DNA of 63,829 nucleotides, taken from assembly GCA_039809465.1 (NCBI GenBank), contig JBDHVB010000002.1, forward strand, positions 1 to 63,829. Reading direction: 5' to 3'. Positions within the stretch are counted from its first letter, which is position 1; every line of letters begins with the position of its first letter. The DNA comes from Myxococcota bacterium. GTDB lineage: Bacteria; Myxococcota; XYA12-FULL-58-9; JALHOP01. Position numbers and translations under genes: made by a program. Of the stretch, positions 14,735 to 60,400 are shown one piece after another. The notes beneath the pieces were generated by a model. It ran no database searches, was not told the origin of the DNA, and saw nothing but the letters and a program-made list of their open reading frames with translations.

Positions 14735-15199
14735 AGCGGGCCACCTGTCGGCGTTGCAGGGCTTTCGCGCGCATCTTCACGCAACACCTCCATGCCCGCC
14801 GCTGATAATGAAAACCGAAGTGCGATAAGGGCATTTTGTGTCTCGAAACGCCCGCACCAAGGAAAGCTCATGCCGAATACGATTTCGCGTCCAAGCCGTC
14901 CTCCAGCAAACACGCGTCAGCCACCTACGCGTGGTTCCGGTCGCTCCCCTGCAAGCCGCGCATCGGCAGGCACGGAGCACGGTCGTAGAGCCGGCAGCGC
15001 AGGGCACGCACCACTCCAGAACGGCAATGACACCTTCGGGGCTCCCACGCCCCTGCCCGAGAACAAGAAGCACGGCGGTCAGCCAAGAACGGGCAGACCC
15101 GCGCCTTTGCCGCCAGCCGAGCTTGGCAAAGGCAATGTCGGCGGCGTTTTGATTTAGGCCAAAGACGTCGCGCCAATGAGCGCCGGTCTCACCGCGCGC

Positions 15200-32205: not shown

Positions 32206-32289
32206 GCGGTAGTGGCGGAATTGGTAGACGCACCAGCTTGAGGGGCTGGCGGTAGAAATACCGTGTGAGTTCGAGTCTCTCCTACCGCA
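32206..32289 (+). tRNA. tRNA-Leu (anticodon GAG)
   Basis: Cloverleaf folded by hand. Acceptor GCGGTAG/CTACCGC plus discriminator A. D-arm GCGGAATTGGTAGACGC. Anticodon stem CCAGC/GCTGG with loop TTGAGGG. Long variable arm CGGTA-GAAA-TACCG. T-loop TTCGAGT, with one U.U mismatch in the T stem. No encoded CCA. Confidence 0.85.
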
Positions 32290-45446: not shown

Positions 45447-46451
45447 TTGGGTATGTTCCTGGTGCTTCCGAAGGGGCAGTCGCTGCGGGCGGTTGCCGAG
45501 CGGTTGGGTGTGGCGGTCGAAGAGCTGCAGAAGCACACGGCCGTCAAAGACGTGGACGCGCCGGCGGTGGTCGAGCAGCGGGTCGAGGTTCCTGACGGGT
45601 TCTTGCGGAGCAAGCGCGAGAAGGCCGAGCTCACCGATGCGATGTCGTCGCCGTCTGGGAAGCGCGGCGGCATGAATATGTGGCTCGCGCTCGACATCGA
45701 GCAGAAGCGCACGCGCGCCGCGGGGGGGATGAAAGCCGGCAAGCAGCGCGACAGTGAGGCCGAGGCGCTGGCTGAAGCGCGCACCGCGTATCTGCGGTTC
45801 GAGGCCGCGAGCAATGACCTCGCGGCTGACCTCTATCAGCAGCTCACCTCGACGGTCTCGACCGATGTTCGCGCCCGTGCCTTCGCGGGTCTCGGCTGCG
45901 CGCAGGCTCAGAGAGCGCTCATCTTCGGCGACCTCAACGAACGCAATCGCGTCGTCGCCCTCAGCAGCGCGAAGGCCGCGCAGCTCGCGGATCCCAAGCT
46001 CCCCGAGTCGCACCTCGCCATGGCCCTCGCCCTGCAGATCAACGGCACCCCGGCCGACTTCGCGGAAGCGCGCGCCGAGCTCATCCGCGCAGTCGAGCTC
46101 GATCCCAAGGCGCACCTTTGTATCGCCGAGCGCGGCCGTCTCGAGTGGCGGGCCCAGGACATCGCGGCCGCTCAGGAAGCCGTGACAGCCGCCCTCGACC
46201 TCGACCCCGACTCACCGTTCGCTCTCGAGCTAGACGCCCACATCCGCCTACAGCGCGGTGATCGGGATGGCGCCCGCGGCCAACTCCAACGCGCCATCTC
46301 GGTGTTGCCCACCTATGCTGACAGCATCGCCCTCTTGGCGACCCTCGAACAGGGTCCTGAGCGCACGAAGCTCATCGCCGATGCCCGCGCTCAGGCCACT
46401 TCCGAGGATCATTTAAAGCGCTTGAACAGCACGATCCTGCGTGAGGAGTGA
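45447..46451 (+). CDS. LysM-like plus TPR-repeat protein
   Basis: 334 aa. The N-terminus LVLPKGQSLRAVAERLGVAVEELQKHTAV...VEQRVEVP resembles LysM. The C-terminal half shows TPR-like helices (…ALDLDPDSPFALELDAHIRLQRGDRDGARGQLQRAISVLP). Confidence 0.75.
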   Translation: MGMFLVLPKGQSLRAVAERLGVAVEELQKHTAVKDVDAPAVVEQRVEVPDGFLRSKREKAELTDAMSSPSGKRGGMNMWLALDIEQKRTRAAGGMKAGKQRDSEAEALAEARTAYLRFEAASNDLAADLYQQLTSTVSTDVRARAFAGLGCAQAQRALIFGDLNERNRVVALSSAKAAQLADPKLPESHLAMALALQINGTPADFAEARAELIRAVELDPKAHLCIAERGRLEWRAQDIAAAQEAVTAALDLDPDSPFALELDAHIRLQRGDRDGARGQLQRAISVLPTYADSIALLATLEQGPERTKLIADARAQATSEDHLKRLNSTILREE

Positions 46452-46493: not shown

Positions 46494-46515
46494 TGTGTTG
46501 ACTTTTGTCAACACA
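46494..46515. promoter_or_regulatory. Perfect palindrome TGTGTTGAC-TTTT-GTCAACACA in the AT-rich leader (candidate operator or activator site)
   Basis: Read directly: 9-bp arms with a 4-nt spacer. It is flanked by the imperfect inverted pair CACCCCACGATCA (46479-46491) and TGATCGTGGTGTGG (46629-46642). Confidence 0.45.
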
Positions 46516-46862: not shown

Positions 46863-46879
46863 TTGGCACAACACTAGCT
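46863..46879 (+). promoter_or_regulatory. Candidate sigma-54 (-24/-12) promoter for the 46949-60344 operon
   Basis: TTGGCACAACACTAGCT compared with the consensus TGGCACG-N4-TTGCW. GG (46865-66) and GC (46877-78) are separated by exactly 10 nt, with one mismatch in the -12 box. It lies about 70 nt upstream of the ATG at 46949, which has a GAAGGAGA SD. Confidence 0.5.
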
Positions 46880-46948
46880 AGAAGGGTTCCACACGCTGCG
46901 CGAGCATCGGCAGCAATGATGTCGAACCTGTTTGAAGGAGATTCACAG

Positions 46949-48319
46949 ATGAGAGCACTTGGACTTATCGGACTATGTAGCTTGGCGATGGCCATGACGG
47001 CCTTCGTTCCGAGCCAGGCGGTGGCGGGTGAGTGCGTGTCCGGTAACTGCGGTACCCCCACGCAATCAGGTGGTGGCTGCGGTTGCGGCTGCGGCTGCAG
47101 CATCCTCGTAGCAATGACCGATCGTGGCGTGACCTATCAGTTCGCCGACGATCAGGACGGCGACGGCGTCGAAGACGACTTCGACAACTGCGCTTTCATC
47201 TCGAACTACGACCAGGCCGACGCTGACGGCGACCAGGTCGGTGACGCCTGCGATAACTGCGTGGCCGCGGCCAACCAGCTCCAAGGCGACGTCAACCTCA
47301 ACGGCATCGGTGACGCTTGCGACACCGACGCTGACGGTGACGGCATCCTCAACAGCAACGACAACTGCTGGCTGGTTCCGAACCCGTCGCAGGCCAACAA
47401 CGACGGTGACTCCGAAGGCGACATCTGCGACGCCGACGACGACAACGACGGCATCCTCGACACGCAGGATCCCTGCCGCCTCATCGCCGGCACCGCCACC
47501 AGCGGCGCTTGCGACGACGACCCAGACGGTGACGGCCTCGTGAACGACGCCGACAACTGCCCGGAAGTCGCCGACTCGACCGCGCGCGACATGGACGGCG
47601 ACGGCATTGGCGACGTCTGCGATAACGACGCTGACGGCGACGGCCGTGAGAACTTCCGCGACAACTGCGCCCTGGTTGCGAACCCGGGTCAGGTCGACGC
47701 GGACAACGACGGTCAGGGTGATGCGGGCAACTACAACACCAATGGCCAGTACGAATCGTGCGACAACAAGGAGTGCTACGTCGTCGACCGCATCGCTTAC
47801 GCGGGTATGTCGGACGCCGACAAGTCGGCCTCGTGCTTGGACCCGACGCACGCCTTCGAGACGCGCCTCGCGCTCGCCGGTAACAACAATCTGACCCGCC
47901 TCCAGGTCGGTGACGTCATCGAGGTTCGTTTGTTCTCGAACCGCCTCAATGAGGTTCACCACTGGACCGCGACGTTCAGCCAGCAGCCGGGCGGCTCGAA
48001 CAGCACGCTCGACAACGCCATCGGCTCGTCGGCCACCTACCCGGGCACGTTCCAGGTCGGTACCGACCCGCGCTACAGCACCATCCGCTTCAAGGCGGAC
48101 AAGGCTGGCGCGTACTCCATCAAAGTCACGAGCGAGCTCGTCAACGGTGACCCCCTTGGGCTGCCGCTGAGCTCGTCCACTCAAGAGATCAAGGCTGAGG
48201 TTGGTGAGGGTAGCGGGGATTCGTCGGGCGGTTGCTCGTCGACTCAGGCGGAAGGAAGCCTTGCGGCGCTCGCAATCGGGCTGTCGGTTGCCGCCGTGTT
48301 GCGCCGTCGCCGTGCCTAG
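46949..48319 (+). CDS. Secreted thrombospondin type-3 (Ca-binding DxDxDGxxDxxD) repeat protein with MYXO-CTERM-type sorting tail
   Basis: Residues 12-467 of track ORF 46916..48319. Signal peptide MRALGLIGLCSLAMAMTAFVPSQAVA. Then SGGGCGCGCGCS. About 8 TSP3-like units follow (DQDGDGVEDDFDNC, DADGDQVGDACDNC, DADGDGILNSNDNC, DDDNDGILDTQDPC, DPDGDGLVNDADNC, DMDGDGIGDVCDND, DADGDGRENFRDNC, DADNDGQGD), then a roughly 130-aa beta-rich domain. The tail is GGCSSTQAEGSLAALAIGLSVAAVLRRRRA (Gly-Cys, hydrophobic helix, Arg cluster). Confidence 0.9.
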   Translation: MRALGLIGLCSLAMAMTAFVPSQAVAGECVSGNCGTPTQSGGGCGCGCGCSILVAMTDRGVTYQFADDQDGDGVEDDFDNCAFISNYDQADADGDQVGDACDNCVAAANQLQGDVNLNGIGDACDTDADGDGILNSNDNCWLVPNPSQANNDGDSEGDICDADDDNDGILDTQDPCRLIAGTATSGACDDDPDGDGLVNDADNCPEVADSTARDMDGDGIGDVCDNDADGDGRENFRDNCALVANPGQVDADNDGQGDAGNYNTNGQYESCDNKECYVVDRIAYAGMSDADKSASCLDPTHAFETRLALAGNNNLTRLQVGDVIEVRLFSNRLNEVHHWTATFSQQPGGSNSTLDNAIGSSATYPGTFQVGTDPRYSTIRFKADKAGAYSIKVTSELVNGDPLGLPLSSSTQEIKAEVGEGSGDSSGGCSSTQAEGSLAALAIGLSVAAVLRRRRA

Positions 48320-48369
48320 TAGCTTCAAAGCGTAGGAGCTTTACTAGGTACTGTGTTCAGGTGAGACAT

Positions 48370-48418
48370 CTCGAGGCCCCTCCTGCTCCGTGAAAATCGG
48401 AGAGGAGGGGCCTTCGAG
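48370..48418 (+). terminator. Strong GC-rich intercistronic stem-loop between operon genes 1 and 2 (attenuator or partial terminator, or mRNA-stabilising hairpin)
   Basis: CTCGAGGCCCCTCCTGCTCC-gtgaaaatc-GGAGAGGAGGGGCCTTCGAG. About 19 bp pair, with two single-nt bulges. There is no downstream U tract. Confidence 0.45.
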
Positions 48419-48451
48419 TCTCTGGTAAAACTTCCCCATACGGAGGAATTC

Positions 48452-50608
48452 GTGATGCCCCCCCTATGGCGCTGCCGTCCCGCGCTTCTAGCTGCTGCTC
48501 TGCTATCGCAGACGACGTGCTCCAAGGTTCGCCTCGAGTTCCCCGAGCGTGAGCAAGAGCTCGTCGGCGTCGATGACAAGCTCCGCCTCCAAGGCGAGTT
48601 CTGCACCTCCCCTGCCGCGAACGTCGTCTACCCCGTCAAGATCATGTTCATCGTCGACGGTTCCGGCTCGCAGCAGTTCTCGGATCAAAACCGCCAGCGC
48701 GTCGTCGCGGTGACCGAGACCATCCAAGCGCTCATCGGCAGCGGCGCGACCTTCTTCAAGATCATCGTCTTCAACGCCTCGGTCACGCCGACGCCGCCCA
48801 TCGCCGACGACGAGCCGGTCTACACCAACGACCTCGCGCGCATCGCGCCGGGCCTCGATAACGTCGCTCAAGCGGACACCGTCACCGACTATCAGGGCGC
48901 GCTCTCGGTCGCCTACAGCGAGATGGTCCGCGACATGGAGAGCGTCCGTAACGATCCTCTTCGCGGGTTCGCCGAGCTCGGCCGCACCAAGTACGTCACC
49001 GTCTTCATGTCCGACGGCTTCCCCGACCCGCAGTGCAAGGTCGGCCTCGGCAACGACTTCGATCCGAACTTCCCGCCGGACAACATCAACCTGCTCTGCG
49101 AAGACGCCGACTACATCGCCTGCATCATGCAAGCGGGTAACTGCACCGACGGTACGCTATGCCGGTCGGACGCCGACTGCGTGAGCGGCGGCGGCTGCTC
49201 GGGTCAGCCCACTTGCGCCAACGATCCAGGGAACGGCGGCGCGTACGTGTGCACCTCGGAGGACGGTGAGACCTCGTGCTTCGCTCCCGAAGACTCGAGC
49301 AGTCTCTTCGGCGGCTTGGGCAACATCACGCTCCTCGCCGGCAACGACTACAATCAGCCCTACCAGATCTTGAAGCTCGTCCAAGACATCATGGATCTCG
49401 AGGACCGCTACCAAGTCGGCGAGATGCGCTTCAACAGCGCCCTCGTGCTCGACCCGCTCGCGGACCCCGCCATCGTCGCCATCTTCGGCGACACCACCCA
49501 GGCGATCCCGCTCATGCAGCAGATGGCCGCGGTCGGTGATGGCGACTACCTCGAGTTCTACGGCGGCGACAGCATCGACTTCGGCTCGCTCAACTTCGAT
49601 TCGCTAAAGCAGACACGCGTGATCCGTGGCTTCTTCGTGCAAGCGGTCTCGAACCGCCTCACCGAGGGTGGCAACCTCGCCGACACCGACTTCGACGGCA
49701 TGGTCGACGAAGACGAGTACGACGCCGGCACCAACCCGCTGCGCGCCGACACCGACGGCGACGGCTACGGCGACTACATCGAGCACACCAAGCGCGGCTT
49801 TGGCTTCGATCCGAACGATCCGTGCTTGCCCGCTATCGTGGACATGTCCCGCGGCGGCGACGCGACGCTCTGCACCAGGGCCGATCCCCGCACCTGGGTG
49901 AACTGCGATCACGACGGCTTCGGCGCCGGCGCCACTTACTTCGATGACGACTTCGACGGCCTCACGAACTGCGAGGAGCGCGCGGTCGGCACCGATCCGC
50001 GCATCCCCGACACCGACGCCGACGGCCTCATCGATCAGGTCGACGTCTACGCCGGCCTCTCCCCCACCGTCTGGGACTACGATCGCGATCTCGATCAGGA
50101 CGGCATCCCGAACGGCCGCGAGATCGAGTGGCACTTGAACCCGCTGGTCTTCCAGAGCGATGTCGAGAGCCGCGAGCACTACCGCTACGTGCGCAACGAG
50201 ATCGGCAAGACCATCGACGGCCGCACCTGCTATTCGTTCGACGTGCGCCACGTGCACCTCGCGGCGACCGGCATCTCCGAGGACATCACGCCGCCAACCA
50301 CGGGCATCAACGAGATCCGCCTCTACATTCTCGAGAACATGTCGGACAACTTGTCGGGCGTGCCGCTCGTGCGTGTCGCCTGCTTGCGCCCACGTTACGT
50401 GCCTCCGACCTTGAAGGTGCCGGCCACGGGTGACGTCAACGACTTGAACGGCGATCTCGTCGATCGTGACGGAAATTCCACGGACGCCTTGACCCGGCAG
50501 CGAGAGCAACGTTTCTTCCGCTACCTGGCTACTCAAGACCCCATCGCCAACACGTTGCAGGACGTCGACTACTTCAACTCTGAAGTCGATTGTCAGGTGC
50601 TTCAGTGA
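48452..50608 (+). CDS. Secreted or lipoprotein VWA-domain protein with TSP3-like acidic Ca-binding repeats (paralog A)
   Basis: 718 aa; GGAGGA upstream, start GTG 48452 or ATG 48455. Signal peptide ending ...LLSQTTC. VWA MIDAS motif MFIVDGSGSQ with FMSDGFPDP. TSP3-like ADTDFDGMVDEDEYDAGTNPLRADTDGDGYGDYIE, DDDFDGLTNCEERAVGTDPRIPDTDADGLIDQVD, DRDLDQDGIPNGRE. Confidence 0.88.
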   Translation: MMPPLWRCRPALLAAALLSQTTCSKVRLEFPEREQELVGVDDKLRLQGEFCTSPAANVVYPVKIMFIVDGSGSQQFSDQNRQRVVAVTETIQALIGSGATFFKIIVFNASVTPTPPIADDEPVYTNDLARIAPGLDNVAQADTVTDYQGALSVAYSEMVRDMESVRNDPLRGFAELGRTKYVTVFMSDGFPDPQCKVGLGNDFDPNFPPDNINLLCEDADYIACIMQAGNCTDGTLCRSDADCVSGGGCSGQPTCANDPGNGGAYVCTSEDGETSCFAPEDSSSLFGGLGNITLLAGNDYNQPYQILKLVQDIMDLEDRYQVGEMRFNSALVLDPLADPAIVAIFGDTTQAIPLMQQMAAVGDGDYLEFYGGDSIDFGSLNFDSLKQTRVIRGFFVQAVSNRLTEGGNLADTDFDGMVDEDEYDAGTNPLRADTDGDGYGDYIEHTKRGFGFDPNDPCLPAIVDMSRGGDATLCTRADPRTWVNCDHDGFGAGATYFDDDFDGLTNCEERAVGTDPRIPDTDADGLIDQVDVYAGLSPTVWDYDRDLDQDGIPNGREIEWHLNPLVFQSDVESREHYRYVRNEIGKTIDGRTCYSFDVRHVHLAATGISEDITPPTTGINEIRLYILENMSDNLSGVPLVRVACLRPRYVPPTLKVPATGDVNDLNGDLVDRDGNSTDALTRQREQRFFRYLATQDPIANTLQDVDYFNSEVDCQVLQ

Positions 50609-53600
50609 CAATCCGCAATCGCGGCCTCATTACACTTGCGTTCTTGGCTTCCGTCGCGTGCACCAAGGACGAGCTCTTCGTTCCCCCGGCGAGCACCGAC
50701 ATCGTGCTCGACAACCGTGTCGAGCTGATGGGCAGCTTCTGCGCGGAGAACGCGGACGATCTGCGCTCGTTTTTGAAGATCGTCATCGTCATGGACCGCT
50801 CGAACTCGATGACGGTCACCGACACGAACAACCGCCGCATCGCCGCGGCCACGGAGCTCGTGCGCAACTATCTCGCGAACGAGAGCACCCAAGAGCTGCG
50901 CGCTGGCGTCGAGTTCGCCATCGTCAGCTTCTACGGCGACGTCGACGTGCACACCCGCGACGAGCGCGGCTTGCCGGGCTTCACCAGCGACGGCCGCCAG
51001 GCGATCTTCGCCCTCCCCCAGCTGGCGCGCGTCGGCTCGAACACCAACTTCCAGGGCGCGCTGAGCCGCGTCTTCACCTTGCTCGACCGCGACATGGCGC
51101 AGCTCGACGAGGTCGCGCGCGAGCGCACCCGCTACGAGATCATCTTCCTCTCCGACGGCCAGCCGTTCCCCAACAACTGCCGCGGTGAGCCCAACTCGGC
51201 CACCAACGCCGTCCGCGCCGTCCGCCGCGTCGTCTCGCTCGGCAGCCTCTACGGCATCGACGTCCACCTCTCGACGGTGTTCGCCGCCAAAGCGGACATG
51301 TTCAACCCGGGCGCCATCAACATCGACGGCTGCACCGAGCACGATCCCTACGTCGCCAACTACGCGACCATCGGCGAGACCACCCGCGCCATCATGCAAG
51401 ACATGGCGGCCCAGGGCGGCGGCACCTTCCGCCAGTTCTTGAACGGTGACGCCATCACCTTCGCCGGCTTCGAGTTCGCCGAGTCACGCCGCATCTACGC
51501 GCTGTCGAACTTCATGACCTCGAACTTGTCGGCACGCCCCGTGGGCGACACCTTGATGGCGGACAGCGACCGCGACGGTCTCACCGATCTCGAGGAGTAC
51601 AACATCGGCTCGTCGCAAGTGCGGGCCGACAGCGACGGCGACGGCTTCAACGACATGGTCGAGTGGCGTTTCCGCTTGAGCGGATTCGACCCGATGGACC
51701 CCACGGACGCCGCCTGCACGCCGCTCACACGTGTCGACAGCGACGTCGACGGCCTGCTCGACTGCGAGGAGATCTTCCTCGGCACCCAGCGCCGCAGCTT
51801 CGACTCCGACAACGACTCGAGCCCGGACTTCATCGAGGTCACCTTCCAGGGGAACCCACGCTCCGCGAACAGCACGCAGGACCGCTACGCCGACGACGAC
51901 GCGGACGGTGGCGGCAACGCCGACGAGCTGCGCTGGCACACCGACCCCAAGGTCAACGACGTCGCCTACCGCGCGAAGTTCGCCTACCAGTACGATCAGC
52001 GTCAGCTGCCGCTCACCGCCGGCTCGGCTTGCTACGAGTTCGACGTGAAGAACGTGCGCATGGCTTCGACACAGCCTCTGCCGCTAGGTGGCGCGAGCAC
52101 CCGCCAGGAGCCCGCGGGCGTGAACCGCATCATGCTCTATTTCGCGCAGACGCCGTACGACGAGCCAGAGGGCGACCCCGTCTACCGTCTCGCCTGTGTC
52201 GAAGGCCGCTACGTGCAAGAGCGCGACTTGAAGATGCCGGCGAGCGGCCGCTTCCGTTTGCCCGAGCGCCGTCCGTCGGACACCTATGAAGCCTCGGGCG
52301 TGCTGCGTCCGAACAACGACATCTGCCAGGCCTCGGTGAACCAAGACTGCGGCCTCGGCACGTTGTGGTGCCGCTTCGAGATCACCGGCGCCTGCACCTG
52401 CTGCAAGGCGCGTGAAGCGGGCACCGATCCGAACGACGGCACCGACTGTCAGGCCTGCCCCGCGTGCTCGGACGGCCAAGACAACGACGGCGACGGCCTC
52501 ACCGACTTCCCCTATGACCCTGATTGCTTCGACTCGGTCGACACCGACGAAGGCAATAGCGTTGCCTGCAGCGACGGCATCGACAACGACGGCGACGGCT
52601 ACATCGACTTCCCGAACGAGCCGGGCTGCGAGTCGGGTTACGACACCGACGAGACCGACGGCCCGGTGCCGCGCGCTTGCTCGAACTTCGGCATCATCAA
52701 CGGCCAGACGCGTCCCATCGACGACGACGGCGACGGCGCCGCGAACTATCCCGCCGATCCCGACTGCGACTCGGCCTACGACGACGACGAAGGCAACCCC
52801 GACGGATCGCTCGGTCCGCCAGCCTGCGATGACGGACAGGACAACGACGGCGACGGCCTCACCGACTACCCGCTCGATCCCGGATGCGGCAGCCGCGACG
52901 ACCCCGACGAGGCCGGCCCGCAGACCTGCTTCTTCTGCGAGCGCTTCACCGACGCGTTGCCCGGCCAGTGCGACATCGCCGCTGGCTTCTGCAAGCCACG
53001 CTCTGGCCAGGTGCCCGAGCCGCGCTCCTGCACGAGCAACACCGATTGCGGGACCGCCGCCATTGGCTACGCGCCCTGCGTGGGCGGTCAGTGCGTTCCC
53101 ACCGCGGTCAACGGCGTTGGCCCCGAGACCAACTGCACCTCGCGCGCTGACTGCCGCGGCGCGCCGTGTGTCGCCGCGAATGGCTCGCAGTGCTTGGGCA
53201 CCGGTCCCTGCGTCGGCGGCTTGTGCTCGCCCTGCTTGCAGAACGCCGATTGCGACACCGCGCCTGGGGCGGCGGACGGTCTTTGCGATCCGTCGATCGG
53301 TTGGTGCTTGCAAGACGGCTTCACGCCCACCGAGTGCGTGGGTGACGGCGATTGCGCCACGGGCGTCTGCGAGACCGACATCGGCGTGTGCTCGGTCGAC
53401 CCGTACTATGCGTGCGACAACGACAAGGACTGCCGTGAGGACGAGATCTGCGCGCTCGAGCGTGGCTTCTGCTTGCGGCGCTCGTTCATCACCGAACAGT
53501 GCGACACCACGACAGCGTGTACGCAGGACATCGACGGCGACGGCCAGCCGGACGGCAGCTGTAACGCCGACATCGGTTGGTGTTTGCCTTCACAAGAGAG

Positions 53601-53742
53601 ATTCCAATGCAGGCAGGACGACGAATGCCCCTTCGGCAATTGTGTGAAAGACAGCGGCGCGGTGTTCGGGTACTGCGATCAGCAAACGTTCGTGTTCCCG
53701 CGCGACTTCAAGCCCGAGGTGGACTGCATTCGTGGGCGGTAG
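50605..53742 (+). CDS. Lipoprotein VWA-domain protein with TSP3-like repeats, four DNDGDG Cys-bounded modules and a long Cys-rich C-terminal region (paralog B)
   Basis: Track ORF 50590..53742. The GTG at 50605 overlaps the upstream stop (GTGA) and gives VTIRNRGLITLAFLASVAC. VWA motif VIVMDRSNSM with FLSDGQPFP. ADSDRDGLTDLEEYNIGSSQVRADSDGDGFNDMVE. Modules such as CSDGQDNDGDGLTDFPYDPDCFDSVDTDE. About 7 further C..D.DC...C motifs. Confidence 0.88.
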   Translation: MTIRNRGLITLAFLASVACTKDELFVPPASTDIVLDNRVELMGSFCAENADDLRSFLKIVIVMDRSNSMTVTDTNNRRIAAATELVRNYLANESTQELRAGVEFAIVSFYGDVDVHTRDERGLPGFTSDGRQAIFALPQLARVGSNTNFQGALSRVFTLLDRDMAQLDEVARERTRYEIIFLSDGQPFPNNCRGEPNSATNAVRAVRRVVSLGSLYGIDVHLSTVFAAKADMFNPGAINIDGCTEHDPYVANYATIGETTRAIMQDMAAQGGGTFRQFLNGDAITFAGFEFAESRRIYALSNFMTSNLSARPVGDTLMADSDRDGLTDLEEYNIGSSQVRADSDGDGFNDMVEWRFRLSGFDPMDPTDAACTPLTRVDSDVDGLLDCEEIFLGTQRRSFDSDNDSSPDFIEVTFQGNPRSANSTQDRYADDDADGGGNADELRWHTDPKVNDVAYRAKFAYQYDQRQLPLTAGSACYEFDVKNVRMASTQPLPLGGASTRQEPAGVNRIMLYFAQTPYDEPEGDPVYRLACVEGRYVQERDLKMPASGRFRLPERRPSDTYEASGVLRPNNDICQASVNQDCGLGTLWCRFEITGACTCCKAREAGTDPNDGTDCQACPACSDGQDNDGDGLTDFPYDPDCFDSVDTDEGNSVACSDGIDNDGDGYIDFPNEPGCESGYDTDETDGPVPRACSNFGIINGQTRPIDDDGDGAANYPADPDCDSAYDDDEGNPDGSLGPPACDDGQDNDGDGLTDYPLDPGCGSRDDPDEAGPQTCFFCERFTDALPGQCDIAAGFCKPRSGQVPEPRSCTSNTDCGTAAIGYAPCVGGQCVPTAVNGVGPETNCTSRADCRGAPCVAANGSQCLGTGPCVGGLCSPCLQNADCDTAPGAADGLCDPSIGWCLQDGFTPTECVGDGDCATGVCETDIGVCSVDPYYACDNDKDCREDEICALERGFCLRRSFITEQCDTTTACTQDIDGDGQPDGSCNADIGWCLPSQERFQCRQDDECPFGNCVKDSGAVFGYCDQQTFVFPRDFKPEVDCIRGR

Positions 53743-56549
53743 TCTCCGCTTTAGCGTTGATGGTGAGCGCGTGTGGCGGCAAGGTCGGCGGCGTCGACTT
53801 GGGGCCCGACATCGACACGCGCCCGCCGAGCTGTGAGCCGGACGACTTCAACAGCCTTAGCCAAACGCGCCCCGCGCAGCTCGGCATCATCGCCGAGGAC
53901 ACCATCTGCCCGCGCGCCGACCAGGACTTCTGGCAGCTCACTGGCATCGGTGGCGACAAGCAGCTGCTCTCCGTCGATCTCGTGTACGAGAAGCTCTCGA
54001 GCGTCGAGCTCCGCGCCGACGTCTGGGGCCCGCGCGGCCGCTGCATGCCGAACGCGCTCACCACCTGCGCCACGAACGACCAATGCGCGCCCACCTTCGA
54101 CTTTTGCGACACGGCGCGCGGTGGTTGCCGCATGGCCGCGTCGCCAGTGTGCTTCAAGGACTCGGACTGTTCGGCGGGCGAGAGCTGCTACGGCACGAAC
54201 ACCGCGGTCGAGCAGCTGGGCTCGGTGCGCATCCCCGCGACCAGCGTGCTCCAGCACCGTCTGACCGCGAACTACGCGGCGTTCGCGCAAGGCACCTACA
54301 CCGTCGTCGTCTACGACCACGCCGAGCGCGAGGAAGAGCCGACCACCAAGTACGCGTTGACGGTCACGACGCAGACGGACCCCGACACCAACGAGCCGAA
54401 CGACCTCGTGAATCTCGCGACGCCGCTCACGCACAATGTCGGCGTCGAAGGCGCGATGTCGTACGTCGATGACGTCGATTGGTACGTGATCCAACCGGTG
54501 TCGGGGACGAACCCCGCGGTCGTGCGCGTGAACCTCACCTACTCGGGCAACGCGGTCATCGCGCCGACCTGGACGGTGGTGCAGGGCAATTTCCAGTACA
54601 TCGGTCCGAACGCTAAAACGGAGAGCTCGGGTGGTACCGCGTTGCGTCGTCAGCAGGCGGCGATCGTTACACCGATGGCGGCGCCCGTTTACATCCGCGT
54701 GCAGAACGGCTCGAACGCCACCAACACGACTGACCGCTATAACCTCACGGTCGAGGTCACCGATGACCCAGAGGAAGGCGCGACGCGCAACGACGACATC
54801 GCGAACGCGACCACGCTGACCTCGACCACGGCCACCGCGGGCCCCAACGGTACGCAGGTCGTGAACTACACCGATCGCCACTTGGTCGCGCTCAACGACA
54901 CCGACTGGTATCGCATCCCGCGCTCCGGCCCCAGTGAGAACACGCTGCTGTATTTCCGCAGCACGGCAGCGGCGAACGCGCCCTACTCGCTCGTGCTGCA
55001 GATGTACCGTGCGACCGCGACGGCGTGCGCGGCCAACAATCCCTGCTCGCAAGGCCGCCCGTGCTCACCCGAGGGAGTGTGCTTGGACCTGATGGCGCAG
55101 CGTCCCGCGCCGGACGGTCCTGGCGATCCACAACAAGGCGGCCTGTCGCCCAACTATCTCGAGACGCAGCTGCCGATGTTCAGCGACGTCGCGTACGTGC
55201 GCATCGTCAACAACGCCGCGACGACGCTTCCCATCGCGGGCTACGACTTCGAGAAGTCGAGCCCATATACGTTGCTCATTCGCCACAAGCTCGAGCCGGA
55301 CGTCCTCGAGCGCACGGCTCCCGACAACCGCTTCCTGTCGCGTCCATTCGACGCGGAGGAGAGCGACTTCGCGCCGGTCTATCGCAACGTGACCGCGGGC
55401 TCGACCATCGTGCCAGGCGCGGACGGGCAGCCGATGGCGGTCGCGCGGCCGGGCTCGACTGTCGGCACGAGCGGATGCACGACGGTGAACCTCGACCTCT
55501 TCGATGGCCGCGGCGCGCCGCTCGCGGGTAGCCACTCGATCGGCGTGACCGCGGCGGGCGGCACCGTGCAGCGCAGCTGTTCGGACACGGCCGCATCGCC
55601 TTTCGCATCCACCGGCGCGACCACGGCGATCGGCGTCCTCTCCTCGGGCGGCCCGGTCACGTTGACCGCTACAGTGGACGGCACCGGCAGCGTGAGCTCG
55701 CAATTGCCGAACGGCAACGCCTTGCTCTTCCGCTCGTCGGTCCCGAATCAAGCAGCCGCGCGCGGTGTCGCCGAGGGATCGGCGTCGGATGTCGTCCGCA
55801 TCATCCTGCCGGCGACGTCGGGCACCGACACGCAGCTCGAGCTCCAGATGAGCGCCGGCACGGTGCTGTGCGCCAACACGGATCCGGCCAACGCGAACAA
55901 CTGTCTCTACGCCAACGGCAGTGGCTACTGCACACCCACCGCGCCAGGCTTGAGCAACTGCCGCGTCACCATCCCCGCTGGGCAGCTGGTCTACGACGTG
56001 CGCGCGATCTTCCCGACGGAGGGCCCCCCCCAAACCATGACGGTGACGAACATCGGCAATCAGATGTTCCAATGGGTCGTCTACGGCGCCGGCTCCATCG
56101 TCACCAACGACAACACGACCATTCAGGGCTATCTCTCGTATGACGGCGATCAGGACTTCTTCCAGATCGTTCCGGCGGGCGTCGGTCCCGGCGGCGTCAC
56201 CATCCGCCTCAGTTACCCCGCGAGCGAGATCGACATCCGCGCGCAAGCCACGCGTGGCGGCGCCGGCGCGGGTGTCGCCCGCCAGCAAGACGTCTGCGAA
56301 GACGGATGCGGCGCTGGTGCGTGCACCGCCTTGCGCAACACTTGTCACTGGAACACGACGACTCTCTCGGCGGGCCCCGAGGCCACGTCGCCCGAGTGCG
56401 TCTACACCTCCGCGAGCGGCGCGACGCCTATCCGCGTGTGGGTCAACGACACCAACTCGAACGACTGGGACGAGATCAACATGTACCACGTCGAGGTCGA
56501 GTACAACGAAGGCTGCCCGGGCGTATGTCCCGCGGCCGCGTGCCGCTAA
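53625..56549 (+). CDS. Lipoprotein with about four pre-peptidase C-terminal (PPC)-like domains and Cys-rich inserts
   Basis: Track ORF 53577..56549. Lipobox AVVSALALMVSAC near 53745-53783; the start is uncertain (see findings). PPC-type motifs DQDFWQL, EPNDLVNLATPL...DDVDWYVI, RNDDIANATTL...NDTDWYRI, YDGDQDFFQI. Confidence 0.8.
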   Translation: MPLRQLCERQRRGVRVLRSANVRVPARLQARGGLHSWAVVSALALMVSACGGKVGGVDLGPDIDTRPPSCEPDDFNSLSQTRPAQLGIIAEDTICPRADQDFWQLTGIGGDKQLLSVDLVYEKLSSVELRADVWGPRGRCMPNALTTCATNDQCAPTFDFCDTARGGCRMAASPVCFKDSDCSAGESCYGTNTAVEQLGSVRIPATSVLQHRLTANYAAFAQGTYTVVVYDHAEREEEPTTKYALTVTTQTDPDTNEPNDLVNLATPLTHNVGVEGAMSYVDDVDWYVIQPVSGTNPAVVRVNLTYSGNAVIAPTWTVVQGNFQYIGPNAKTESSGGTALRRQQAAIVTPMAAPVYIRVQNGSNATNTTDRYNLTVEVTDDPEEGATRNDDIANATTLTSTTATAGPNGTQVVNYTDRHLVALNDTDWYRIPRSGPSENTLLYFRSTAAANAPYSLVLQMYRATATACAANNPCSQGRPCSPEGVCLDLMAQRPAPDGPGDPQQGGLSPNYLETQLPMFSDVAYVRIVNNAATTLPIAGYDFEKSSPYTLLIRHKLEPDVLERTAPDNRFLSRPFDAEESDFAPVYRNVTAGSTIVPGADGQPMAVARPGSTVGTSGCTTVNLDLFDGRGAPLAGSHSIGVTAAGGTVQRSCSDTAASPFASTGATTAIGVLSSGGPVTLTATVDGTGSVSSQLPNGNALLFRSSVPNQAAARGVAEGSASDVVRIILPATSGTDTQLELQMSAGTVLCANTDPANANNCLYANGSGYCTPTAPGLSNCRVTIPAGQLVYDVRAIFPTEGPPQTMTVTNIGNQMFQWVVYGAGSIVTNDNTTIQGYLSYDGDQDFFQIVPAGVGPGGVTIRLSYPASEIDIRAQATRGGAGAGVARQQDVCEDGCGAGACTALRNTCHWNTTTLSAGPEATSPECVYTSASGATPIRVWVNDTNSNDWDEINMYHVEVEYNEGCPGVCPAAACR

Positions 56550-56555
56550 GCACCG

Positions 56556-59500
56556 TTGGCCGCCGTTCGCTTTAGCGTAGTAGCCGGTCTGGCGCTCCTC
56601 GGCGTGGGTTGCAATCCCACCCTCGAGGCGCCGCCGGGTGTGCGCATCAATTGCGAAGGGCACGGCACCTGCCCCGATGGCTTGGTCTGCGTGCACGACG
56701 TCAACGCCTGCGTGCGGCCGGGCACGACCTGCGTCGAGCAACGCGATGGCGGTTACTTTCCCGCGGCCGACGGCAATGTCTGCACCAGTGACGGCGAGCC
56801 TGGAGTCTGCCGAAGCGGCGCCTGCATCCGCTGCGGCAACGGCTTCGTCGAGGAAGGCGAGACCTGTGACGACGGTAACCTCGACCCGAGCGACGCGTGC
56901 CCCATCAACTGCCTGACCGCGCGCTGCGGTGATGGCTACGTTTTAGCGGGCGTCGAAGAGTGCGACGACGGCAACGACAGCAACGACGACGCGTGCCTCA
57001 CGACCTGCGCCGCGAGCTTCTGCGGTGATGGCTACGTCAACGCCGCCGCCGAGGAGTGCGACGATCAGAACACCAACGAGAATGACGGGTGCTCGTTCTG
57101 CACCGCGACGGTCTGGCAGCCGAGCATCGCCTTCGGGCTGGGCAGCGACGGCTCGGCGCCGGCGACCACCGCGCTCAGCAATCTCGGCCCGTTGGCGGCG
57201 ACGCGCGCGGGGCTGCTGTACGCGGGGTGGCAGCGCATGACCGGCGATCTCGCCGACATCAACCCAACGGAGCGGACGGTTGGCGGCGCGTATGTGGTGT
57301 CCGCGGCGGCGAACGTCGTGCTCCCGATCACGCGTCGCGACGGCGCGGTGCGCGGCGATCAGCTCCCCGAGACCGGCTTGGCGCGCTCCATCCAGCTCGG
57401 CCTCGTCACCTCGATGACGGCGGACGCGCGCGGCAACTTGTACCTGACCATGGTGAACTACGAGCGCCAGAACAACGACTACAATACGTTCGGCGCCTAC
57501 GTGCTCTTCATCGATCTCGAAGGGACCTTGAGCATCGTCGCTGGTGACGAGCAGCGTTGCGAGACCACGCTGGACGCCACCTCGTGCGGCAACAACGGCC
57601 GGGCGCGTGACGCGACCTTCGGCGACTTGAGCGGCCTGGCGTTCGATCGACGTGGCCGCCTGCACATCGCCGATGGCCCGAGCGTTCGCTTCATCGACGT
57701 CGATGGCCGTGTCTACCAGCGCGCCGGTATCTCGAGCGCCACCTGCGGCGGCAGCGGCTGTGGTGATGGTGGCTTTGCTACGAACGCGCGCTTCAAAGGC
57801 CCGCTGCAGATCACCTTCGACGCGGAGGACAATTTGTACATCTCCGACCAAGGAGACAGGCGCATCCGCCGCGTCGGCACCGACGAGCGCATCGCGACGG
57901 TCTACGGCACGGGTCAGGATTGCACCGATTGGCCAGGCTGCGATAGCGGCGCGCGCCTGAATCATCCCTCCGCGATCGCGGCTACTCCGCAGTACCTCTA
58001 CATCGCGGACGATCAGGCCGACTCGAGCAACAACCCGGGCGCGGTCATCAGACGCGCGACGCTCGGCGCTCCGAATACACGGATCGTCCATGGCATGGGC
58101 TCGGCGTGTGACGTACTCCCTTGCGGCGACGGTGGCGATCCGCTCCTCGCGTACAGCTCTTACATCGACGGTCTCGCGGTGCTCGGAGACGGCCGCTTGG
58201 CCTTCACCGATGTTCTCTCGCGGGCGGACGAGCCGAGCATCCGCGCGCCGAGCCGCGTGCGCGTCATCGACTTCGCGGCGAACCGAGTCGACAACCTCGC
58301 GGGCCGGGTCGGTCAAGAGCGTCCTCTCGTGGGCAACTTGCCGACGAGCCATGACGCGCACATTCCACTGTGGACCGAGGACGGCGGCATCGTGTTCGCC
58401 ACGAGCTCGCGGGTCTTCGCGATCAATCCCGAGACGAATCACGTCAGGCTCGTCGCTGGAGCGGACACTTGCAATTTCGCGGGCGGCAAGTGCCTCGCCG
58501 ATGAGAAGCCAGTGGACGAGTTCTCGTTCGCGACCATCGGCGACATCGACGCGGGCGATGGCACGGTGTACGTCGCCGACACCGATCGCGATCAAGTCTT
58601 CGCCGTCAGCGGCGGCATGGTGCGTCATGTCTTCGGCGAGAAGTGCGGTCCGACGGGACCGTGCGTCGCGGCGCCGGTCTCTGACCCCCGCGCCGCGCGC
58701 GTGAAGGAGCTCGGCGGCTTGAGCTACCGTTCGGGGCACCTGTTCGTCACCGATCGGGCAAATCACCTGGTCTGGGACGTGACGATTGGCGCTGGCGCCG
58801 CCCCCACGATCGGCAGCGGCGCCTACGACTCGAGCGGCAATGGCGGCGCGCCCGGGGACGCGAGCTTCCGCTGTCCTCTCGACGTCCTTGCGTCGGTGGA
58901 TGGAGGCGTCTACGTCTCCGATCCGGACAGCTGCGACATCCGTGTCGTCCGCGATAACGTCATCAGCCTCGCGGCGCAGGTCGGCCCGTGCGTGGGCGCC
59001 CCGGGGTCCTTACCGCCGTTCATGACGTGCGGCCGTTGGGACGCGGTGGACTTCGGGGGCATGACGCGCACGCCGCTGGCCCTCACCGAGGACAGCATCG
59101 GCGTGATCGCCGCCGGCACTTCATCGGTGAGCCGCGTCACGAACGGTAAAGCCTTGACGGTGATCGCTGGCGTGCTCCCGACTTTCGAGCCGACCGACCT
59201 CCTCGAGGGGTCTATCGCCACCGAGGTCGCGCTCGGTCAAGTGCGCGTCGCCGCGCGGCCGGGCCGACAGCTCCTGATCGGTTCGGACTTGGGCCTCACG
59301 CACGTCATCCGGCGTCTCGACGCCGACGACCGCCTGCGCATCGTGGCGGGCGACATCGATGGGTCGGTCACCGGCGGCTTCCCAGTCGCCGAGCTCTTCA
59401 GTCCCCGCGCCGCGGCGCGCTTGGATAGCGGCGCGGTCTTGCTGGCCGATAGCGGTCTCAATGCCGTCCGCCGCATCGACACCGCGCGGCGCGAGGTCGA

Positions 59501-60344
59501 GCCCGCCATCTTCGCGCTCTACGGGCCGCTGCTCGGGCAAAGCGCGCCCACTCCGGCGCGATTCACCACGTCGCCCTCCCTCATCGTGGACGCTATCGCG
59601 GTCGATGTGCCACGACGGACCATCTACCTCGCGGAGTCCGCGACCGGGCGGTTCGCCACGGTGAGCGCGTCCAACATCGACGACGTGTCGAGCTGGACCA
59701 CCGTCGCCAACGGCCCCGTCGGTGGTACGCGCGGTGACATCTCCACCGCGACCGCCTTGGCCGTCGAGCCAGCGAGCGGACGGGTCTTCGTCGCGGACGC
59801 GCAGCAGCACGCGATCTATCTGGTCGCGCCCGACTCGTTCGCGACGACGCTCGTCGCGGGCACACCTCCCTTCGTCGGCTATAGCGGTGACGGCCGCAAC
59901 GCCACCGACGCCCTGCTCGACTCCCCTCACGGCCTCGCCGTCGCGCCTAGCGGAGCTCTCTACTTCGCCGATACCGGGAACAACCGCGTCCGCCGCGTCG
60001 CGCCAAACGGGGTGATCGCCACCGTCATGGGCACTGGCGTCGGGACCTCGGAAGGCGGCGGCGGCCCGGCGGGGACCCTCCCCATCGAGGCGCCAACGAG
60101 CCTCGCGTTCGATCAGTACGGCAACTTGCTGATCAGCGCGGGCCCCGTCGTGCGTGTCGTGTACGCCGACAACGACAGTGAGCCAACGGCCACCTCGCTG
60201 GGTGGCACGCTCTACAACGCGCGCAACGTGCCGGCGCAGCGCGACGTCATCAAATGCCTCACCGCGGCCTTCAGCGGGCGTGATGGCGAGATCTACGTCG
60301 CGGACGCATGCTCGGGCGCGGTCGTCCTGCTCCAGCGCCAGTGA
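56556..60344 (+). CDS. Lipoprotein with three Myxococcus-type Cys-rich repeats followed by multiple NHL-type beta-propeller repeats
   Basis: 1262 aa, TTG start 6 nt after the upstream stop. Signal peptide MAAVRFSVVAGLALLGVGC. Cys-rich repeats CGNGFVEEGETCDDGNLDPSDAC, CGDGYVLAGVEECDDGNDSNDDAC, CGDGYVNAAAEECDDQNTNENDGC. NHL-like repeats FKGPLQITFDAEDNLYISDQGDRRIRRV, LDSPHGLAVAPSGALYFADTGNNRVRRV, IEAPTSLAFDQYGNLLIS. Confidence 0.88.
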   Translation: MAAVRFSVVAGLALLGVGCNPTLEAPPGVRINCEGHGTCPDGLVCVHDVNACVRPGTTCVEQRDGGYFPAADGNVCTSDGEPGVCRSGACIRCGNGFVEEGETCDDGNLDPSDACPINCLTARCGDGYVLAGVEECDDGNDSNDDACLTTCAASFCGDGYVNAAAEECDDQNTNENDGCSFCTATVWQPSIAFGLGSDGSAPATTALSNLGPLAATRAGLLYAGWQRMTGDLADINPTERTVGGAYVVSAAANVVLPITRRDGAVRGDQLPETGLARSIQLGLVTSMTADARGNLYLTMVNYERQNNDYNTFGAYVLFIDLEGTLSIVAGDEQRCETTLDATSCGNNGRARDATFGDLSGLAFDRRGRLHIADGPSVRFIDVDGRVYQRAGISSATCGGSGCGDGGFATNARFKGPLQITFDAEDNLYISDQGDRRIRRVGTDERIATVYGTGQDCTDWPGCDSGARLNHPSAIAATPQYLYIADDQADSSNNPGAVIRRATLGAPNTRIVHGMGSACDVLPCGDGGDPLLAYSSYIDGLAVLGDGRLAFTDVLSRADEPSIRAPSRVRVIDFAANRVDNLAGRVGQERPLVGNLPTSHDAHIPLWTEDGGIVFATSSRVFAINPETNHVRLVAGADTCNFAGGKCLADEKPVDEFSFATIGDIDAGDGTVYVADTDRDQVFAVSGGMVRHVFGEKCGPTGPCVAAPVSDPRAARVKELGGLSYRSGHLFVTDRANHLVWDVTIGAGAAPTIGSGAYDSSGNGGAPGDASFRCPLDVLASVDGGVYVSDPDSCDIRVVRDNVISLAAQVGPCVGAPGSLPPFMTCGRWDAVDFGGMTRTPLALTEDSIGVIAAGTSSVSRVTNGKALTVIAGVLPTFEPTDLLEGSIATEVALGQVRVAARPGRQLLIGSDLGLTHVIRRLDADDRLRIVAGDIDGSVTGGFPVAELFSPRAAARLDSGAVLLADSGLNAVRRIDTARREVEPAIFALYGPLLGQSAPTPARFTTSPSLIVDAIAVDVPRRTIYLAESATGRFATVSASNIDDVSSWTTVANGPVGGTRGDISTATALAVEPASGRVFVADAQQHAIYLVAPDSFATTLVAGTPPFVGYSGDGRNATDALLDSPHGLAVAPSGALYFADTGNNRVRRVAPNGVIATVMGTGVGTSEGGGGPAGTLPIEAPTSLAFDQYGNLLISAGPVVRVVYADNDSEPTATSLGGTLYNARNVPAQRDVIKCLTAAFSGRDGEIYVADACSGAVVLLQRQ

Positions 60345-60400
60345 CCTGCTCGGAGGCCGTTTGACACGCCCGTGCAAACCCTCTGGCGCATTGCGTCAAT

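Follow-up and report, generated by a model that had tools for sequence, protein, structure and literature searches.

The question raised by a stretch of DNA from an uncultured Myxococcota bacterium (63,829 nucleotides of contig JBDHVB010000002.1, assembly GCA_039809465.1; this whole stretch is called the window here) is whether a run of five co-directional genes within it, referred to below as genes 1 to 5, specifies a new kind of cell-surface system. The original prediction, drawn from the sequence by itself, had seen in these genes only secreted or lipid-anchored products assembled from extracellular modules and had recognised no named system to which they might belong. The latter statement has to be given up. 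The cluster appears to be a homologue of the named, mechanistically uncharacterised mts locus of Myxococcus, and no new kind of system. As judged from sequence comparisons, the part of the window from position 46864 to 56549 is very probably the version of the mts cluster that belongs to this uncultured lineage, with gene 1 as the MtsC equivalog and with genes 2 to 4 corresponding, by position and by phylogeny, to the three genes that come after mtsC.

The mts locus is among the least understood surface systems of the social myxobacteria, the available literature offering a phenotype and two family names. In the available literature, MtsC corresponds to MXAN_1334 (PMC12475490), and mts of Myxococcus fulvus HW-1 and M. 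xanthus is connected with cell-cell cohesion, with type-IV-pilus (S) motility and with fruiting and development (PMC11980579; PMC12475490), both sources citing Zhang et al. (2007, J Bacteriol 189:7937). The literature accessible to us contains nothing on MXAN_1332-1337 or on mtsB, mtsD, mtsE or mtsF beyond two passing mentions of MtsC, and "MtsB", "MtsE" and "MtsF", where they are applied to the M. xanthus neighbours, are positional labels and unverified as names.

The Four Genes of a Probable mts Locus

Gene 1 can be identified as MtsC because it passes, end to end, the cut-off of 350 bits set for NF047638, the NCBIfam equivalog model of MtsC (422.7 bits, over profile positions 10-428 of 428); the same model gives 597 bits with the corresponding open reading frame (ORF) of M. 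xanthus. The Pfam family TSP_3 is matched in five stretches of gene 1 with a total of 145.8 bits, and some 8-9 acidic motifs of the Ca-binding type can be counted, which agrees with the approximately eight thrombospondin type-3 repeats first proposed for the cluster. A profile of the gene 1 family matches the type-3 repeats of COMP (3fby, 7e-74) and of thrombospondin-2. The N-terminus has the form of a type-I-like signal peptide, and the C-terminus, aligned across 16 homologues, consists of GGC, a hydrophobic stretch and RRRR; the tail GGCSS...LAALAIGLSVAAVLRRRRA has the three parts of the MYXO-CTERM tag (an invariant Cys motif, a hydrophobic helix and an Arg-rich end), and the signal peptide that proteins of this kind need is present as well. 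Several of the 16 homologues are named MYXO-CTERM or TIGR03382 proteins by JGI, and the NCBIfam scan lists no separate TIGR03901 match for gene 1. All 16 also share a near-invariant motif, ECxGGxCGTPxQSGGGCGCGCG-SIL, placed directly after the signal peptide (window 47030-47101, residues 28-51), which could, if the analogy with COMP and its interchain Cys is followed, be a module for disulfide-based oligomerisation or for metal binding.

For the comparison of gene order, one genome per species was scanned with an alignment of MtsC, the proteins of the window were compared with the loci so retrieved, and at least 28 loci were examined by tblastn, phmmer and jackhmmer. The locus of M. xanthus AM003 (L036) reads, in order, a homologue (47% identity) of the 733-aa lipoprotein encoded upstream of the window cluster (up733), a VWA-degenerate MtsD-like paralogue, MtsC, MtsD (1350 bits with the MtsD model), a second MtsD-like paralogue and an ORF of 796 aa. 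The succession MtsC, VWA/TSP3, VWA/TSP3, PPC-like is found in M. xanthus, in Corallococcus (L027), in Vulgatibacter (L019), in an uncultured member of the Bradymonadales (L022) and in many metagenome-assembled genomes (MAGs) of Myxococcota, and the synteny of up733, MtsC and the two VWA genes extends over M. xanthus, Corallococcus, Vulgatibacter, Bradymonadales and ~20 MAG loci. The core of the system therefore seems to consist of four genes, shared from the Myxococcaceae to the Bradymonadales and so conserved well beyond the fruiting Myxococcaceae, with an up733-type lipoprotein (di-haem and propeller) often conserved alongside; the functional unit would not be limited to mtsC and mtsD. An assembly deposited as 'Comamonas sp. 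KCTC 72670' (L026, BNCN01000002.1) was also seen to carry an mts locus nearly exactly like that of M. xanthus, which suggests that the assembly is mislabelled or comes in reality from a myxobacterium.

Genes 2 and 3 encode the two paralogous VWA proteins with TSP3-like loops that had been expected at this place. The Pfam family VWA_2 scores 25 bits with gene 2, just below its cut-off of 27, and 43.7 bits with gene 3, and TSP3_bac is matched in gene 2. The residues of the MIDAS, an adhesion site that depends on a metal ion (DxSxS...T...D), are intact in both proteins, as DGSGS in gene 2 and DRSNS in gene 3, with the T in TDYQGAL / TNFQGAL and the D in SDG, and the DxDxDG loops number 5 in gene 2 and 9 in gene 3. 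The product of gene 2 is laid out as an N-terminal VWA domain with a Cys-rich insert, then TSP3 loops, and a beta domain at the C-terminus. Its AlphaFold2 model (predicted local distance difference test score, pLDDT, 83.9) shows the VWA fold with the insert disordered, the TSP3 region and the beta domain, and its best matches in the PDB, as found by Foldseek, are VWA domains of adhesins: the Mfa5 pilus tip, the PilB minor pilin, ITIH1, ANTXR2, RrgA, SpaC and integrin beta. In their MIDAS residues and VWA_2 matches, and for gene 2 also in the fold, both proteins have the features of VWA adhesins. The lipobox Cys of genes 2 and 3 aligns in all of the paralogues, M. xanthus MtsD included, and this residue (C23) is kept in at least 90% of the sequences of the alignment (A3).

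When the VWA/TSP3 proteins are arranged in a neighbour-joining tree, without bootstrapping, they fall into three phylum-wide clades. One, at "position 2", holds gene 2 together with M. xanthus MtsD; another, at "position 3", holds gene 3 together with the M. xanthus gene that comes after mtsD (ORF 13264-15066); and the third is made up of the MtsB-type paralogues. Genes 2 and 3 would accordingly be read as divergent orthologues of the Myxococcus genes, and the duplication that separated them as an ancient one, because the position-2 and position-3 paralogues form separate clades that each span the phylum; both of the duplicated lipoproteins retain an intact MIDAS. Gene 3 has in addition a C-terminal extension of ~490 aa that is acidic and Cys-rich, and acid_disulf_rpt is matched in this protein with a sub-cut-off 27 bits. 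Extensions of this type occur in L001, L006, L086 and L087 and are absent in the Myxococcaceae.

The product of gene 4 had been credited with about four PPC domains, and this is the weakest of the early claims. Four DxD[WF][YWF] motifs are present, and a profile of the gene 4 family matches the collagen-binding (PPC-type) domain of ColH/ColG with E=2e-4, but the protein itself has no Pfam or NCBIfam match, the Pfam search (PPC, PF04151, included) being empty even at E<=1. Some of its relatives do pass the Pfam PPC model, among them the L003 orthologue with 43.3 bits and two of ten sampled family representatives. In a Foldseek search with a model of low confidence, the best match was to the tandem collagen-binding domains of ColG (5iku, 3.5e-7); the model is too poor for domain boundaries to be drawn from it, and only this top match was used, as it agrees with the independent profile match. 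According to jackhmmer, the second VWA gene has a member of the gene 4 family directly behind it wherever the locus extends to that point, and the 796-aa ORF of M. xanthus (L036 15063-17453) is a distant homologue (BLASTP 6e-8, jackhmmer 8e-93). The extent of the family became visible in a full HMMER scan, which found 2690 representatives at E<=1e-3 and 778 at E<=1e-10, ~30 of them full-length long forms; a word-indexed search gave 7 proteins only. On this evidence the fourth gene, unannotated until now, appears to belong to a large and divergent PPC-like family that has likewise gone without annotation.

A Proposed Role in Adhesion between Cells or to a Matrix

The module content of these proteins can be combined with what is known of their relatives into a proposal for how the cluster might work. 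Transcription of gene 1, and probably also of the closely packed genes 2-5, would be driven by a sigma-54-type promoter, and all of the products would be exported by the Sec system. MtsC would go on to cross the outer membrane by way of the type II secretion system and would be cut by a myxosortase at the Cys of its MYXO-CTERM tail, to be lipid-anchored on the cell surface and to display there a thrombospondin/COMP-like "wire" loaded with Ca2+. Precedent for these steps is that MYXO-CTERM proteins are exported through the type II secretin and processed by myxosortase for surface anchoring (PMC11980579, PMC12475490), GspD being the component that translocates them (PMC12475490). The two VWA lipoproteins would be surface-exposed, integrin-like adhesins of the outer membrane, as are CglD, a surface-exposed, Ca-dependent and beta-integrin-like lipoprotein with VWA and COMP-like parts (bioRxiv 10.1101/2023.10.19.562135), and the VWA surface adhesin CglB (PMC9946355), and their MIDAS sites would bind an acidic ligand in a manner dependent on divalent cations. 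The PPC-repeat lipoprotein would supply Ca-stabilised beta-sandwich modules for binding or spacing, the four core products would combine into a complex at the surface by which cells are attached to one another or to a matrix, and the NHL lipoprotein of gene 5 would probably be co-expressed in this clade as an extra binding module.

A different account of the function, which we consider possible and distinctly less probable than a role in cohesion, is that the cluster is a module for binding substratum, prey or matrix. The VWA, PPC and NHL domains would then attach to external polymers, such as exopolysaccharide, or material from prey or sediment that is proteinaceous or collagen-like, and the cohesion defect of Myxococcus mts mutants would come about indirectly, through attachment to the matrix. 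The likeness of gene 4 to clostridial collagen-binding domains would be at home in such a scheme, although that similarity is weak and does not imply the binding of collagen. The same can be said of the VWA matches, which are to pilus-tip and host-matrix adhesins, of the presence of the core in lineages for which no social behaviour is known, the Bradymonadales among them, and of CglD and CglB, which stand nearest among characterised analogues and which bind to the substratum (10.1101/2023.10.19.562135; PMC9946355). What speaks for cohesion instead is that the sole genetic phenotype in the available literature concerns cell-cell cohesion and S-motility (PMC11980579).

Several observations weigh against the identification of the cluster as an mts locus or against the adhesive role proposed for it, and are best considered together. 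The MtsD equivalog model, NF047639, has a cut-off of 800 bits, as compared with 166.7 bits for gene 2 and 117.3 bits for gene 3, and the orthology of these two genes rests on their position and on the unbootstrapped tree. No member of the MtsB clade adjoins the window cluster. The model of gene 4, while all-beta, was built from an alignment of 7 sequences and has a pLDDT of 58.9. The Bradymonadales are not known to be social, and the occurrence of the locus among them (L022) may mean that the cluster is adhesive in a more general way and that cohesion is just one expression of this. Finally, co-transcription, surface exposure, Ca dependence and contacts among the products are all features that we infer. 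The Ca-dependent surface adhesion complex envisaged in the original prediction is thus upheld to the extent that it fits the mts phenotype, the precedent of the integrin-like CglD and the adhesin VWA fold of gene 2; as an assembled complex it keeps the standing of a proposal.

If the cohesion account is carried further, one might imagine that the phylum-wide MtsC-VWA-VWA-PPC core is a bacterial counterpart of the metazoan pairing of integrins with thrombospondin/COMP, an idea to which we assign a rather low likelihood. The MIDAS sites of the two VWA lipoproteins would bind, in trans, to acidic residues in the type-3-repeat wire that the MtsC of a neighbouring cell displays in its Ca-loaded form, the adhesion would be homotypic, and its specificity would be tuned by the gene 3 extension, by the number of repeats in gene 4 and by add-ons such as gene 5. 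Were this true, the adhesion system would be older than the fruiting myxobacteria and not restricted to them.

Gene 5 and the Variable Slot Downstream

Gene 5 contains the Cys-rich repeats and the NHL blades that had been ascribed to the cluster, in the form of three copies of TIGR02232 and Pfam matches to TEN_NHL (94.9 bits), DUF4215 (54.5 bits) and NHL (53.3 bits). Its lipobox, LLGVGC, was seen directly in the window sequence. A TraA-type receptor was considered for this product and rejected: the likeness is confined to the Cys-rich repeats, PA14 and MYXO-CTERM are both lacking, and in their place the product has a lipobox at its N-terminus and an NHL propeller.

Conservation of the five-gene order had been set beforehand as a check on the original prediction, and it is here that the four-gene core and the fifth gene part company. 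The closest relative, L089, in which gene 4 shows 85% identity, is the only one with an orthologue of gene 5 in the same place, and a P450 gene and cysE come next there. L087 is a close relative too, with identities of 88% in MtsC and 63% in gene 4; here the P450 gene and cysE come right after gene 4. Gene 5 is absent as well from the region 3' of the gene 4 homologue in L086, L090, L001, L003, L006 and all of the Myxococcaceae loci, and in none of the 80 metagenomic loci that carry relatives of gene 5 does a homologue of genes 1-4 lie less than 8 kb away. As a unit, the five genes are not conserved, because gene 5 is confined to the window and L089; gene 5 would seem to be a recent, lineage-specific add-on of a narrow clade, outside the conserved mts core. 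The view that all five genes, that of the NHL protein included, form one obligatory and hitherto undescribed Ca-dependent surface machine is for these reasons largely refuted and strikes us as very improbable: the gap of 6 nt between genes 4 and 5, the lipoprotein nature that gene 5 has in common with genes 2-4 and the identical order in L089 would suit it, but the distribution of gene 5 does not, and genes 1-4 belong to a locus that already has a name.

What lies between the PPC-like gene and cysE is the NHL gene alone in the window (56550-60400), NHL and P450 genes in L089 (12779-17957) and P450 alone in L087 (19732-21048). Since the content of this slot varies among such close relatives, the slot can be regarded as a hotspot of gene gain and loss. 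In two seawater metagenome loci (L099 7129-15641 and L100 8001-16513), relatives of gene 5 with DUF4215 and NHL were observed to be duplicated in tandem, in a neighbourhood free of mts genes.

Upstream Genes and Regulatory Elements

The conserved unit appears, from the gene orders compared, to extend upstream and not downstream of the four-gene core. The up733 lipoprotein has the lipobox LATAC, CXXCH haem motifs at residues 497 and 617, and weak Pfam and NCBIfam matches to a propeller in its N-terminal part and to CCP_MauG and cytochrome c in its C-terminal part. The gene is syntenic with the mts core within the clade of the window, and homologues lie 5' of mtsC with 46-52% identity in M. xanthus, Corallococcus, L026 and L010, and with 37% in Vulgatibacter. 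A redox-type di-haem gene is in this way linked to a Cys-rich adhesin cluster. The TPR protein encoded next matches Pfam TPR and, faintly, HTH_38, and has no evident signal peptide; its gene stands immediately 5' of that of MtsC in L001, L005, L006, L085, L086, L087 and L089. The early statement that no enzyme or regulator is encoded holds for the five genes themselves, the syntenic genes upstream of them being those of the di-haem lipoprotein and the TPR protein.

In the window the TPR gene occupies the slot that in the Myxococcaceae belongs to the MtsB-type, VWA-degenerate paralogue, which in M. xanthus is without a MIDAS. Members of this clade were noted 5' of mtsC in the Myxococcaceae and elsewhere 3' of the PPC-like gene (L036 8178-9806; L012, L019, L021). 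Further 5', divergent genes for aldehyde dehydrogenase, pgk and tpi are syntenic within the clade of the window.

The 497-nt region 5' of gene 1 was aligned with those of four relatives. It contains TGGCACAACACTAGCT, the only place in the window where TGGCAC-N5-TWGCW is matched strictly (0.10 expected), and this sigma-54-type element is conserved in the alignment of the five related loci. Similar motifs occur 5' of MtsC in 9 of 27 loci, Bradymonadales among them, at an expectation of 0.016 per 480 nt, while the same regular expression finds none 5' of mtsC in the Myxococcaceae. TGGCACAACACTAGCT is accordingly a putative sigma-54-type promoter. A simple scan for sigma-70 promoters found no sigma-70-like site. 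Just 3' of the TPR gene, and ~350 nt 5' of the sigma-54-type element, lies the palindrome GTGTTGAC-TTTT-GTCAACAC, with arms of 8+8, which is unique in the window (0 expected by chance) and conserved in the five related loci; it may be an operator or activator site (an upstream activating sequence), or else the hairpin that ends the TPR gene. Terminator-like sites are at the level of chance (10 found, 10.1 expected), neither scan being informative with regard to transcription units, and a search with Rfam gave no RNA element in the cluster, the only match in the window being a tRNA (32206-32289).

Layout of the Locus and Gene Calls

The five genes are listed with the neighbouring features in Table 1. 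That they are real and co-directional, as had been proposed, is borne out by codon composition: the five plus-strand frames are taken to be coding because the GC content at their third codon positions (GC3) is 0.82-0.89, as against 0.59-0.69 for the antisense ORFs beneath them. By the same measure the antisense ORFs, of 150 to ~600 aa, were ruled out as artefacts of high GC content. The spacing is also much as first described, with 132 nt between genes 1 and 2, a 4-nt GTGA overlap between genes 2 and 3 and a short gap before gene 5; the overlap of genes 3 and 4, whose length had been left uncertain, can now be put at ~103-136 nt, depending on the start of gene 4.

Table 1. Features of the mts-like cluster and its upstream region, in window coordinates
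Feature	Positions	Strand	Remarks
Upstream beta-propeller/di-haem lipoprotein (up733)	42948..45149	+	733 aa
Upstream TPR protein	45447..46451	+	Pfam TPR matches
Perfect palindrome GTGTTGAC-TTTT-GTCAACAC	46495..46514		Between TPR gene and promoter element
Sigma-54-type -24/-12 promoter element (putative), TGGCACAACACTAGCT	46864..46879	+	~70 nt 5' of gene 1 start codon
Gene 1, MtsC-type secreted TSP3 protein with MYXO-CTERM tail	46949..48319	+	ORF 46916/46949-48319
Gene 2, MtsD-clade VWA/TSP3 lipoprotein	48452..50608	+	ORF 48452-50608
Gene 3, second VWA(MIDAS)+TSP3 lipoprotein paralogue	50605..53742	+	ORF 50590/50605-53742
Gene 4, divergent PPC/collagen-binding-domain-like lipoprotein	53625..56549	+	Start 53607, 53625 or 53640; ORF 53577..-56549
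Gene 5, accessory Cys-rich (DUF4215) + NHL lipoprotein	56556..60344	+	ORF 56556-60344

The ATG of gene 1 is backed by a conserved AAGGAG Shine-Dalgarno sequence. For gene 4, the three starts given in Table 1 are the only in-frame ones that retain the conserved lipoprotein signal peptide, which by alignment is kept in L087, L089, P0232 and P0233, its lipobox Cys aligning with the canonical lipoboxes of the latter two. The gene 4 call of the sequence collection (P0228, 53760-56549, 929 aa) begins at the Met of MVSAC... and loses this signal; the call is probably too short, as an artefact of avoiding the overlap with gene 3. Signal peptides were judged by eye and then compared with alignments, and the early assignment of a lipobox Cys to genes 2-5 and of a MYXO-CTERM-type tail to gene 1 stands on that footing, with alignments behind those of genes 1-4. 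In M. xanthus, lipoproteins with no Lys at position +2 are sorted to the outer rather than the inner membrane. Every lipoprotein of the cluster lacks Lys at that position, and by this rule all of them are predicted to be outer-membrane proteins.

Outside the cluster, the stretch of the window with the highest GC content (0.71) contains a 1493-aa ORF on the minus strand (21606-26087) that has no Pfam match at E<=1e-5.

Comparison with Known Systems

Two bacterial systems that might be thought of in connection with the window were set aside. The Bat aerotolerance operon combines VWA and TPR proteins, and there is no MoxR or DUF58 gene in the flanks of the cluster; the only trace of it is NF010238 (PRK13685, 'hypothetical protein'), with E=0.008 and a score of 15 bits where 432 are required, and the window VWA proteins are lipoproteins with TSP3 loops, unlike the membrane-anchored BatA and BatB. 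As for defence systems, the PADLOC models gave no match.

Gene 4 resembles the s3a/s3b domains of clostridial ColG, and ColH, of the PPC superfamily, in its beta-sandwich repeats and motifs of the DxDW[YF] type; in contrast to the collagenases it has no peptidase domain, and the Pfam PPC model matches some of its relatives but not gene 4 itself. Among metazoan systems, thrombospondin and COMP have in common with gene 1 true type-3 repeats, and the VWA domains of integrin beta and ANTXR are close in fold to that of gene 2. Metazoan thrombospondins and COMP combine these repeats with TSP_C, a combination that gene 1 does not have; the Pfam scan of gene 1 gave TSP_3 only, with no TSP_C lectin-like, coiled-coil or EGF domain, so that the likeness is confined to the repeats. 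The window proteins are moreover anchored by a MYXO-CTERM tail or by lipid, in place of being matrix glycoproteins or having transmembrane helices. The metazoan resemblance is one of modules, and membership in these families is not implied by it.

The nearest characterised analogues, CglD and CglB, are likewise outer-membrane lipoproteins with a VWA domain (DxSxS MIDAS), COMP-type DxDxDG loops and many disulfide Cys, and the adhesion that they mediate is Ca-dependent (10.1101/2023.10.19.562135; PMC9946355). They differ in that neither is linked to an MtsC-type gene and in that CglD carries its VWA at the C-terminus, where the window proteins have theirs at the N-terminus; CglD and the window proteins are not orthologous. 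That the cluster should be an adhesin set for gliding of the Agl-Glt type, with orthologues of CglD and CglB placed at bacterial focal adhesions, is therefore most doubtful: the VWA+TSP3 lipoprotein architecture is common to both, but the match to the CglD equivalog model (NF033765) is weak, passes through the TSP3 loops only and reaches 18.6 bits against a cut-off of 400, cglD (MXAN_0962) and mts are separate loci in M. xanthus, and the ORFs scanned in the window gave no other match to a gliding family.

It is with the mts locus of Myxococcus that the cluster agrees most fully. The differences are that genes 2 and 3 of the window are too divergent for the MtsD cut-off, that a TPR gene stands in place of the upstream MtsB-type paralogue, that gene 3 bears its long acidic, Cys-rich extension, that gene 4 is ~930-970 aa in length as compared with 796, and that an NHL/Cys-rich lipoprotein gene and a sigma-54-type promoter motif are added. 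Common to both are an MtsC equivalog that carries TSP3 repeats and ends in a MYXO-CTERM tail, the VWA/TSP3, VWA/TSP3 and PPC-like lipoproteins that follow it in that order, the beta-propeller/di-haem lipoprotein encoded upstream, and the MIDAS residues and lipobox Cys. The comparison of the two loci yields concrete targets for studies of how myxobacterial cells stick together.

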